NCBI GenBank assembly: GCA_001938485.1
Contig: MQRK01252786.1
Location: 17,090 to 81,089, forward strand
DNA length: 64,000 nt
Direction of reading: 5' to 3'
DNA from: Girardia tigrina
Taxonomy: Eukaryota
Shown: in pieces, positions 48,701 through 51,700 of the stretch
Layout: every line of letters begins with the position of its first letter
How positions within the stretch are numbered: the stretch's first letter is position 1
Made by a program: the position numbers and the translations under genes
Notes under the pieces: model-generated
Seen by the model: only the letters and a program-made list of their open reading frames with translations
The model's database searches: none
What the model was told of the DNA's origin: nothing

Positions 48701-51700
48701 TTTTTCGAATGTTACATATTTAATTATATAAAAATTTTAATTTGTACATATTTAATATAACTTTCTTTCAAAAATTTTCCTAACATTTTTAATTCCTAAC
48801 AATCATATAATTTTAACGATTTAAATAAACAGTGAGGGGCTACTCGCCCATACTGGCCTCCAGAACTCTAAGGCGCTCTAAACCCTTCACTATTTATAGA
48901 TGAAGGGTGAGGGAGATGCGTCCGGCCACCCAATCAAAAATACCTACAGAAATATCACACATCGGGTTGATGTTGAACCCTTTAAAAACTCTGGGGACTC
49001 AGAATCTCCAGAAATGTCAACACGTGAGGTGGCTGTGACAAAAAAAATTATTTTCAACAAATGAACTAATTTCAAATAATGAACTATTTTATAAGTTATT
49101 AAATTATTATAATAGGAAAAAAAATTCTGAAAAAAGTCATGAATAAATTGTATTATACAAAACTAATAAATTATATGAAATTGTATAACTTCAGCTCTAC
49201 ACACGGGACATTGATATATGTGATTGTTGTCAGATGCAATTTTGACTCCTCTTTTTTACATCTGCGGCAAATAGTTGAATGTCCACAATTAAATCGTATA
49301 TTTCCTGCACCATTTCGGAAACAAATTACACAATTTCTGTCTATTTCAGTACCATTTGGTATATTTCTAAGAAATACAATCAAATTATCATTTCCATAAA
49401 ATGTTCCAGAATAATCGCTGCCACTGGACTCTAATGAATTGTTATTCTCAGAACCATCTGAATTTCTAACTAAGTCTGGTAAATTATTGTCTGAAAATTT
49501 CGGTAATAAATGTTGCATTTCAAGTGGTAATTCATCAAACATTAACACTTATCTCTCCTTTGAAATTTTCAATGAGACCATCGAGATTAACAAGATTTGT
49601 GCTAGTTGCCTCAACGTTTTCAGGAATCGCAGGGAACAATTCAGCTTTTCGCTTGCTCATTCCTCTACTAATCATAGGGAAAGACAATTGCGAGGAAATT
49701 TCCTATGGGTTCGTAGAACTAACTTCATCAAAAATTTGACATGTTTTAGACGATTTTGAGGCTTCTTCAATCAATTCAATTTTTTTAATGGCAATTCGTG
49801 AGAATCTGGGTTGTGGTTGTGTAGCTTCAATACTTTTAATTTATTAATTTTGAGATTAATGACAGCAGAACCGATGCAATCCAAATTATAAAATAATTGA
49901 CACTTCAAATTTATTGTTTGTTTGTTGGACTTTACTTTATAATAAAGAAAAGAATTGACCATAAAATATTTTGAATTTTTTCTTAAATATGATTTTAAAA
50001 TAATCACTTAACCATTAAAATGTTGGCCTCCCATCTCTTTCGAATGGTATTGAGCCTCTAGGCTCTTTAGAGGGTCCACCCAAACTAAAGAATCACTAGC
50101 AGCCCCCCGATAGGCCTCCTACGGGGTCGGATAGTTTCNNNNNNNNNNNNNNNNNNNNNNNNNNNNNNNNNNNNNNNNNNNNNNNNNNNNNNNNNNNNNN
50201 NNNNNNNNNNNNNNNNNNNNNNNNNNNNNAGCCGCGAAAGGGACATCTGAACTCCCCCCTTGCAGTTAGATCTGCAATCCTAAAAGTCAGATGTGTTTCT
50301 TCAGTACCTATCGCTTCTTCCATCGCCGTCGAGATAGTCGGGGGGTCCTTCACGGATTAAATCTGGTTGTCTGAAATGTTGAGGTTTTCTACGACTCTTT
50401 CTTCTGTGGTTGTACTGATTTGCGATGGTGTCATTGTCGGTTCTCCAATTTATGATCCCGGTAGAGGTGCCTTGTCAACCACCCCTTCGTTTTGTACGAA
50501 TTTTTACATAGTGTACATGGGAATGGCAATTGCTGTTGTTGTATCTCATTGAGCTGATCAGGATTAGCGGAAGTGGACACTGCGTGGTCCCTTTTCATGT
50601 GCCTGTTCAGCTCCTTCTTTTCGGCAAACTCCTTGTAGCATCTTTCTACTGGACATTGGTGACGTTTNTCTCTCTCGTTGATCAGCTTCGGTACAGTTGT
50701 TCTTGTCCTATTGTGTCTTCCTGATCGAATTAAGGAGTTTATGTATTTTTTCCCTCGATACAGTAGGATCTCTGTGATTGATGCGGTTAATGAAATCTCC
50801 ATATACCTCATCATCCCCAAATAGCCACTGTATATCCACTCGAAGACATTCCGAAATTGATTGCTTCTTTCTCCCACTGATCTTTTTCCCCATTTGTATT
50901 TCTCCCTTCCAGATTCGTTTGATTGTCNNNNNNNNNNNNNNNNNNNNNNNNNNNNNNNNNNNNNNNNNNNNNNNNNNNNNNNNNNNNNNNNNNNNNNNNN
51001 NNNNNNNNNNNNNNNNNNNNNNNNNNNNNNNNNNNNNNNNNNNNNNNNNNNNNNNNNNNNNNNNNNNNNNNNNNNNNNNNNNNNNNNNNNNNNNNNNNNN
51101 NNNNNNNNNNNNNNNNNNNNNNNNNNNNNNNNNNNNNNNNNNNNNNNNNNNNNNNNNNNNNNNNNNNNNNNNNNNNNNNNNNNNNNNNNNNNNNNNNNNN
51201 NNNNNNNNNNNNNNNNNNNNNNNNNNNNNNNNNNNNNNNNNNNNNNNNNNNNNNNNNNNNNNNNNNNNNNNNNNNNNNNNNNNNNNNNNNNNNNNNNNNN
51301 NNNNNNNNNNNNNNNNNNNNNNNNNNNNNNNNNNNNNNNNNNNNNNNNNNNNNNNNNNNNNNNNNNNNNNNNNNNNNNNNNNNNNNNNNNNNNNNNNNNN
51401 NNNNNNNNNNNNNNNNNNNNNNNNNNNNNNNNNNNNNNNNNNNNNNNNNNNNNNNNNNNNNNNNNNNNNNNNNNNNNNNNNNNNNNNNNNNNNNNNNNNN
51501 NNNNNNNNNNNNNNNNNNNNNNNNNNNNNNNTGGATTCTAGGTAACAAATTGAAATGTACGAAGGTTTACACTTATCGATTTACTAACAAATTCAAAGAG
51601 GTGACTTTTGTATAATACATTTAATTTAAACAATATTATTTTATTTTAATTGTAATTTTATTTGATTAAAATGTTTTTTATTTCATTTAACTGATCACAA

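Follow-up and report, generated by a model that had tools for sequence, protein, structure and literature searches.

The locus raises the question of why a LINE copy inside a Mutator-like (MULE) element should share an 18-nt target motif with relatives that lie inside Penelope elements. The window, by which we mean the whole 64,000-nt stretch of Girardia tigrina DNA analysed here, contains four related LINE fragments, all on the minus strand. Three of them sit in the YIG site of Penelope elements: copy A (subfamily A; 14143–15368, 8-bp target-site duplication (TSD), site 15365–15382, GTGTAAAATATCGT^ACAT), copy B (subfamily B; 21162–22617, 11–12-bp TSD, site 22614–22631, GTGTCAAAACTCGT^ACAT) and copy D (a diverged subfamily; 54817–56225, 9-bp TSD, site 56222–56239, GTGTCAAAACTCAT^ACAT). 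Their motif is the codon string G TGT nnn nnn TCG TAC AT, which encodes Cys-x-x-Ser-Tyr-Ile of the Penelope GIY-YIG endonuclease, and its conservation in these three copies is therefore partly a matter of protein constraint. The fourth, copy C, was singled out by the first-pass annotation as a natural control that separates recognition of DNA sequence from co-mobilisation with Penelope.

Copy C is a genuine insertion and, taken alone, an ordinary one. It is a 5′-truncated RTE-like LINE of subfamily B (50024–51548, minus strand; 90–97% identity to copy B and to the full-length copy L130) that retains the end of the reverse transcriptase (RT), the thumb, the C2H2 fingers (sister copies have a zf-C2H2 Pfam match) and the 3′ end ...AAAGAGATGGGAGGCCA. 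Comparison with empty sites placed the duplication (A)TT[A/G]AAATGT, 9–10 bp with one mismatch, at 50014/5–50023 (3′ copy, ATTAAAATGT on the plus strand) and 51549/50–51558 (5′ copy, ATTGAAATGT on the plus strand). The minus strand of 51555–51572 reads GTGTAAACCTTCGT^ACAT, as annotated, with a GTG box at −14 and T^AC at the cut; with a matrix derived from 50 other sites, copy C left out, it scores 12.2 bits. Penelope protein matches within the window are confined to 13.9–23.4 kb and 35.5 kb; none falls in 47.9–51.8 kb, and both flanks belong to a multicopy element with terminal inverted repeats (TIRs), which bears out the claim that copy C has no Penelope neighbour. Other copies of this element supplied the empty site: 26 genome-wide matches were found with at most two mismatches, and the 25 besides the window copy, several of which are near-identical duplicates, are all uninterrupted, the two flanks of copy C meeting exactly in them, so that the motif is older than the LINE insertion. 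The site is thus present in these copies, but not in its full 18-nt form, as they mostly read GTGTAAACCTCCGTACAT (...CCTCCGT^ACAT) and TCGT occurs in the window copy only among the 26. Among 23 matches to the MULE site, only the window copy is joined to a LINE 3′ end.

The host is an internally deleted FLYWCH-MULE-RING element (47935–51758, minus strand) with TIRs and a 9-bp TSD, as in MULEs. Its tandem-repeat TIRs, GGGT...AACTAATTTCAAC, lie at 47935 and 51758, and the duplication, described as perfect, is indeed ATTTACATA on both sides (47926–47934 and 51759–51767). Two minus-strand frames carry FLYWCH (49774–50007; PF04500, E=3e-4) and, C-terminally, RING (49174–49548; PF13920, E=3e-5). About 830 nt of transposase core that is present in other copies is missing at 49539/49540, and a weak match to the MULE domain, which falls in this deleted region, was obtained only in a degraded copy, L140 (PF10551, E=1e-3, below cut-off). 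The placement of copy C just before the ATG of the transposase was not upheld: the ATG 8 nt past the cut reads ATG GTT AAG TGA, is open for three codons only, and is absent from the empty copies, which read CAGTGGGTAAG. Uninterrupted copies have the site within ..KNHLFEFVSKSISVNLRTFQW.. in the FLYWCH frame, ~170 nt upstream of the FLYWCH match, and relative to them the window host has lost ~140 nt near the LINE site. This MULE family has been hit three times by the LINE. Besides copy C, L137 carries an A-type fragment at the very base used by copy C, and L138 an E-type copy at a second MULE motif, GTGT-CCATTA-TTTT^ATAA; for L137 and L138 the 5′ junction alone survives. The MULE site comes close to the optimum and has been used twice in ~27 copies (copy C and L137), both reading TCGT. 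Two further features were recorded in this family: ~460 nt inside the window host (48340–48801) are missing from other copies and represent a nested insertion, and frames adjoining the MULE copy in L138 (positions 850–1720) seem to resemble a capsid-like protein and a cysteine protease of the Polinton/Maverick type.

The address is defined by the family as a whole, away from Penelope. Duplications were called by a script from the two junctions with the motif unused, and mismatched junction pairs passed in 3.5% of 397 trials. Counting overlapping loci, 337 3′ ends were called, of which 87 had both junctions and passed, or 76 without duplicates; ends at contig edges, at gaps or with no duplication were dropped, and copy C is not among the 76. 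Of these sites 26 are Penelope-linked and 50 are not, and n=47 once homologous targets are collapsed, with L033, L121 and L256 excluded as they occupy an antisense site in another Penelope family. Duplications span 8–23 bp, mostly 11–13 (exactly 12 in 11/76). At 27/47 non-Penelope sites the first base of GTG lies exactly 14 nt ahead of the duplication, against a background of 0.9% (p about 6e-43), and within one base of this position at 32/47; G alone is found at −14 in 38/47. Across the 50 sites the offset is −14 in 29, −15 in 4 and −13 in 2. At the cut, T precedes the duplication in 39/47 and A opens it in 42/47 (AC in 28/47). GTG stands at −14 in 18 of the 26 T^AC insertion sites, whereas in the flanks 12 of 779 TAC words have it. 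A is frequent at positions −9 to −7, and almost no information is found after +2, as the annotation had proposed for the sequence following ACAT. At fifteen of the 47 sites GTG starts neither at −14 nor one base to either side; miscalling or decay probably accounts for some of them.

These data support a core target of GTG-N10-T^A(C), bipartite with a near-fixed spacer. The proposal of a bipartite site with a fixed 6-nt spacer was therefore right in its two-part architecture and near-fixed spacing, but not in the identity of the parts, and the 18-nt motif is not a requirement: TCG occurs at 1/47 and ACAT at 5/47 non-Penelope sites, and the full GTGT-N6-TCRT^ACAT at none of the 47, nor at any of the 55 sites of a wider set. 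The enrichment expected for that motif at non-Penelope insertions is instead an enrichment of GTG at −14. Graded site occupancy, given below, suggests instead that the 18-nt form is an optimum, in which TCG and an A-rich spacer may raise site use. That the GTG box holds at non-Penelope sites speaks for recognition of DNA sequence over co-mobilisation. Subfamilies B and E both have it (19/31 and 6/12, with G at −14 in 11/12 of the latter). In other repeats, too, different subfamilies have inserted at one and the same base (L279, L265, L372; L157, L162; L044, L325): B, A and E share one such site, B and G another. Two metagenome scans for a LINE relative in other species, with which to compare the motif, returned none.

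Full-length copies of the LINE are 3.8–4.0 kb and contain one long frame that encodes an AP-endonuclease (APE), an RT and three C2H2 fingers; Pfam assigns Exo_endo_phos and RVT_1, and long frames were recovered from L130, L133 and L135. An intact relative of 1,145 aa (P0001) has the same single frame with N-terminal APE and central RT. No RNase H family matched on P0001, P0155, P0012, P0157 or the LINE's own frames. In subfamilies B, A, G and E alike, the 3′ end is ...GAGATGGGAGGCCC and abuts the duplication, with no poly(A) or repeat tail, and the exact 17-nt 3′ end occurs 2,452 times genome-wide. A 5′ HDV-like ribozyme is common in RTE elements, and here Rfam HDV-type models match the exact LINE 5′ end with E=0.003 (L130) to 0.8 (three more copies), all below the gathering score. 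In a quick RT tree that combined database sequences with our own, 100 in all, the LINE falls in a 47-row clade (SH-aLRT 100), 42 rows of which have at least two C-terminal fingers, their helices resembling FAExKELxRH and YKTxGWLxRH. This finger-bearing clade includes a Schistosoma rodhaini protein and lies beside the nearest database RTs outside it, which carry DUF6451. The LINE may be called RTE-like from its architecture and from RT and thumb motifs that we take to be of RTE type; references named as RTE, Vingi or ingi were absent from the tree. The terminal ~70 nt of the LINE (seen at 50014–50100 of the window and in all subfamilies) are nearly identical, although subfamilies E and B share only ~42% identity in their final 444 aa; when the last 87 nt of one copy were folded, a plausible hairpin set resulted that was no better than shuffles (z=−1.4).

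We conclude, with a probability of roughly 60%, that copy C is an ordinary insertion by an RTE-like LINE family that targets GTG 14 bases upstream of T^A(C), where the GTG box is likely read by the C-terminal C2H2 fingers and the T^A step likely nicked by the AP-endonuclease. The spacing, the duplication lengths, the same address in four subfamilies, the non-Penelope majority and the tandem reuse were observed directly; ribozyme trimming, the bottom-strand nick, RNA–DNA pairing and the second nick are taken from the standard target-primed model. A mechanism is proposed where the 5′ HDV-like ribozyme trims the LINE RNA, the fingers read the GTG box and the endonuclease nicks T^A, the nick falling on the bottom strand where the duplication begins. 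The RNA, which has no tail and ends in ...GGGAGGCCC (AC may follow), would prime there with one or two paired bases, and a second nick 8–17 nt downstream would create the duplication. Among ~15 sites whose first bases are not AC, however, only 4–5 have an extra AC at the 3′ junction. The address would survive at the 5′ junction because it lies upstream of the cut, and later copies would therefore insert in front of earlier ones.

LINE sites do regenerate and are reused in tandem. Nine of 262 distinct 3′ flanks run into a same-strand LINE copy and three of 262 into an opposite-strand copy. The 15-bp duplication of L288/L184 starts with Penelope ACATT and continues into the junction of the older copy: insertion leaves the upstream portion of the address intact, and this portion is sufficient.

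Reading of GTG by the fingers is likely, judging from conserved residues at base-reading helix positions (Arg +6; Glu or Trp +3) in sequences that are only ~30% identical. A bolder and tentative extension is that the finger pair defines a widespread, undescribed RTE-like branch, in which it would serve as a modular DNA ruler that sets the nick 14 bases downstream of GTG, with a code tuned here to the Penelope Cys-x-x-x-Tyr-Ile-Gly codons such that one retroelement systematically breaks another's nuclease. It is rather unlikely, though it deserves the most weight among the alternatives, that the address, though genuine, has its reader in the endonuclease, the thumb or an RT surface, the fingers being RNA-binding chaperones as proposed for ingi/L1Tc. 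PMC3820030 ascribes the upstream consensus of ingi to its endonuclease, and PMC5814959 reports that the L1Tc finger domain binds nucleic acid with no sequence specificity. Subfamily E, whose second-finger helix is changed to AAGFLRI, has a similar motif with no clear change, which counts against finger reading and fits this alternative. The conserved base-reading residues argue the other way. A box 12–14 nt from the nick is moreover about as far away as the contacts of an APE domain extend, which counts against the endonuclease as reader.

The Tyr-Ile-Gly codons of the Penelope endonuclease are the favourite site of the LINE. Exact Penelope downstream sequence follows 205 of the 2,452 exact LINE 3′ ends. 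In an unbiased set of 71 distinct flanks (70 loci among the first 100 by contig number; 40 chosen for upstream room), 7 continue as Penelope YIG and ~16 are Penelope-linked by eye once tandem and antisense cases are added. Roughly four in five LINE copies thus lie outside Penelope, so that copy C, which had been called off-target, belongs to the majority. Copies at the Penelope site have differing 5′ ends (397–4022 nt) and come from four subfamilies, which marks them as independent insertions and excludes co-mobilisation as the main cause of spread.

Use of the Penelope site is graded. There are 1,900 exact empty Penelope sites, of which 100 were listed; 55 of these are type 1 (spacer AAAAC, TCGT) and 45 type 2 (AATCC, TTGT). 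Filled sites comprise 12 of type 2, leaving ~190 of type 1, and the retrieved flanks comprise 57 and 5 of type 1 and type 2, respectively, so that the family with AAAACTCGT is used ~10 times more than that with AATCCTTGT. Rough occupancy is ~15% for type 1, 1.4% for type 2 and ~0.3% for generic GTGW-N9-TAC sites (~219,000, extrapolated from 51 in 333 kb), ratios that are indicative only, because pattern lengths differ and host families may differ in age. Comparing ~190 filled per 1,045 empty type 1 sites with ~700 per 219,000 generic sites gives a rough excess of about 50-fold, for which the minimal motif is insufficient, with host-family age as a confound. On our preferred mechanism the GIY-YIG codons (Cys-x-x-Ser-Tyr-Ile-Gly) would be best used because they combine a match to the extended optimum (GTGT, A-rich spacer, TCGT^ACAT) with abundance. 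The same gradient in occupancy, and the 57:5 ratio of filled flanks against 55:45 for the empties, would also be expected if the LINE were adapted to the Penelope YIG codons, perhaps aided by pairing of master-copy read-through RNA with the target, and its other sites were leakage. Further Penelope sites are used as well, in the RT in sense (L098) and in antisense (L033/L121/L256), and four of the full-length copies examined are in YIG sites. Such an adaptation is improbable, given that about four in five copies are elsewhere, and pairing of read-through RNA is made less likely by type 2, which has the same downstream sequence yet ten times fewer insertions, and by non-Penelope 3′ junctions, at which no long Penelope-derived additions were found.

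In the second Penelope family, repeated antisense insertions lie ~60 nt upstream of the YIG codons, with GTG at −14 and T^AC (L033, L121, L256), and the same antisense flank is present in L043, L204, L275, L313 and L329. Within the window, inverted Penelope copies (13836–13957 and 15568–15687; 88% identity) flank copy A, like Penelope inverted 5′ ends.

Copy C contains two assembly gaps, 50139–50229 and 50928–51531. The latter is 604 N where relatives predict 360–385 nt, an excess of ~240 nt, no bridging contig was found among the contigs of four public runs, and a run search returned no long reads; the 9–10-bp duplication and the continuity of the host across copy C speak for one insertion. 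That copy C is an assembly chimera, as this oversized and unbridged gap might suggest, or a Penelope co-traveller, or that its motif arises incidentally from coding constraint in Penelope, as the conserved codons in Penelope might suggest, is scarcely credible when its flanks are two halves of one host site that is empty in 25 copies, no Penelope sequence is nearby and the GTG box holds at non-Penelope sites.

Among known systems, the LINE works like ingi/L1Tc and is built like an RTE. For ingi/L1Tc, PMC5814959 and PMC3820030 describe relative site specificity, C2H2 fingers, a TSD near 12 bp and tandem copies. Shared with the LINE are the APE-type organization, C-terminal C2H2 fingers (three here), tandem copies, a TSD near 12 bp and a gapped consensus upstream of the nick, although the letters given for L1Tc (GAxxAxGaxxxxxtxTATG^A; PMC5814959, PMC3820030) differ from GTG at −14. 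The 5′ HDV-like ribozyme reported for ingi/L1Tc has a possible counterpart here in matches below the gathering score. In contrast to ingi/L1Tc, no RNase H was found in the LINE, its TSD ranges over 8–23 bp instead of a fixed 12, its RT resembles the RTE type and its hot spot is formed by another retroelement's endonuclease codons.

The RTE clade (RTE-1, Schistosoma SR2/SR3, BovB) resembles the LINE in having one APE–RT frame of ~1,150–1,200 aa in 3.9–4.0 kb, and also in a very short 3′ UTR and a 10–12-bp TSD (SR3: PMC1291365). In the same paper RTEs are described as having no tight target specificity, and PMC13708176 lists RTE-1_MD as random-integrating. The LINE is unlike them in its three C-terminal C2H2 fingers, in its strong gapped target motif and in ending ...GAGATGGGAGGCCC, where plant RTEs are described as having repeat tails (PMC3747384). 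The LINE thus differs from ingi/L1Tc in RNase H and TSD length, and departs from the RTEs in fingers, tail and target preference.

Tx1L inserts into Tx1D transposons. The Tx1 and R1 clades of strictly target-specific APE elements share with the LINE insertion into a multicopy sequence, including another transposon, a fixed position and orientation, and tandem reuse (PMC4640811); they belong to a different clade, and most LINE copies here are outside the multicopy target (205/2,452 at the Penelope site). In R2, an RLE-type element, zinc fingers likewise help to recognize DNA away from the nick (PMC13708176), but these are N-terminal and accompanied by Myb, the nuclease is C-terminal and restriction-like, and a single rDNA site is targeted. 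A finger-bearing, sequence-preferring RTE or a Penelope-targeting LINE was not found described in the literature searched; Repbase and most subscription papers were outside its scope, so the family may already be catalogued. Mosquito RTEs are said to target MITEs.

The weight of the finding is carried by the family-wide result and not by the single MULE copy. Sequence choice by APE-type LINEs is usually credited to the endonuclease alone, and RTE elements are regarded as non-specific, also by the builders of gene-writing tools derived from them. Here, a tail-less RTE-like family of thousands of copies has a sharp two-part target with ruler-like spacing, and its four subfamilies are natural replicates. 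Because the candidate reader domain can be swapped or mutated, the choice between endonuclease and accessory finger is directly testable. The Penelope endonuclease hot spot, in turn, is a case of one retroelement landing in another's conserved coding motif.

Two minor observations concern other elements. In L395 (4136–4317, minus strand) a full-length subfamily E copy begins, at the first G of the ribozyme, right after the T-run of a U6 snRNA gene (Rfam U6, E=6e-14) with promoter-like sequence upstream, the single such case among all loci examined; it is either an insertion at the U6 terminator, with a 7–12-bp imperfect duplication visible, or a U6–LINE fusion. Other mobile elements in the window lie at 25481–26575 (plus strand), 56430–57730, 45941–47137 and 17520–19460 (all minus strand), 2182–3785 and 10214–11485, and include a pogo-type DDE_1 transposase whose 364-aa frame looks intact, a mariner-like element, fragments of LTR-retrotransposon integrase and protease, and two elements with TIRs.
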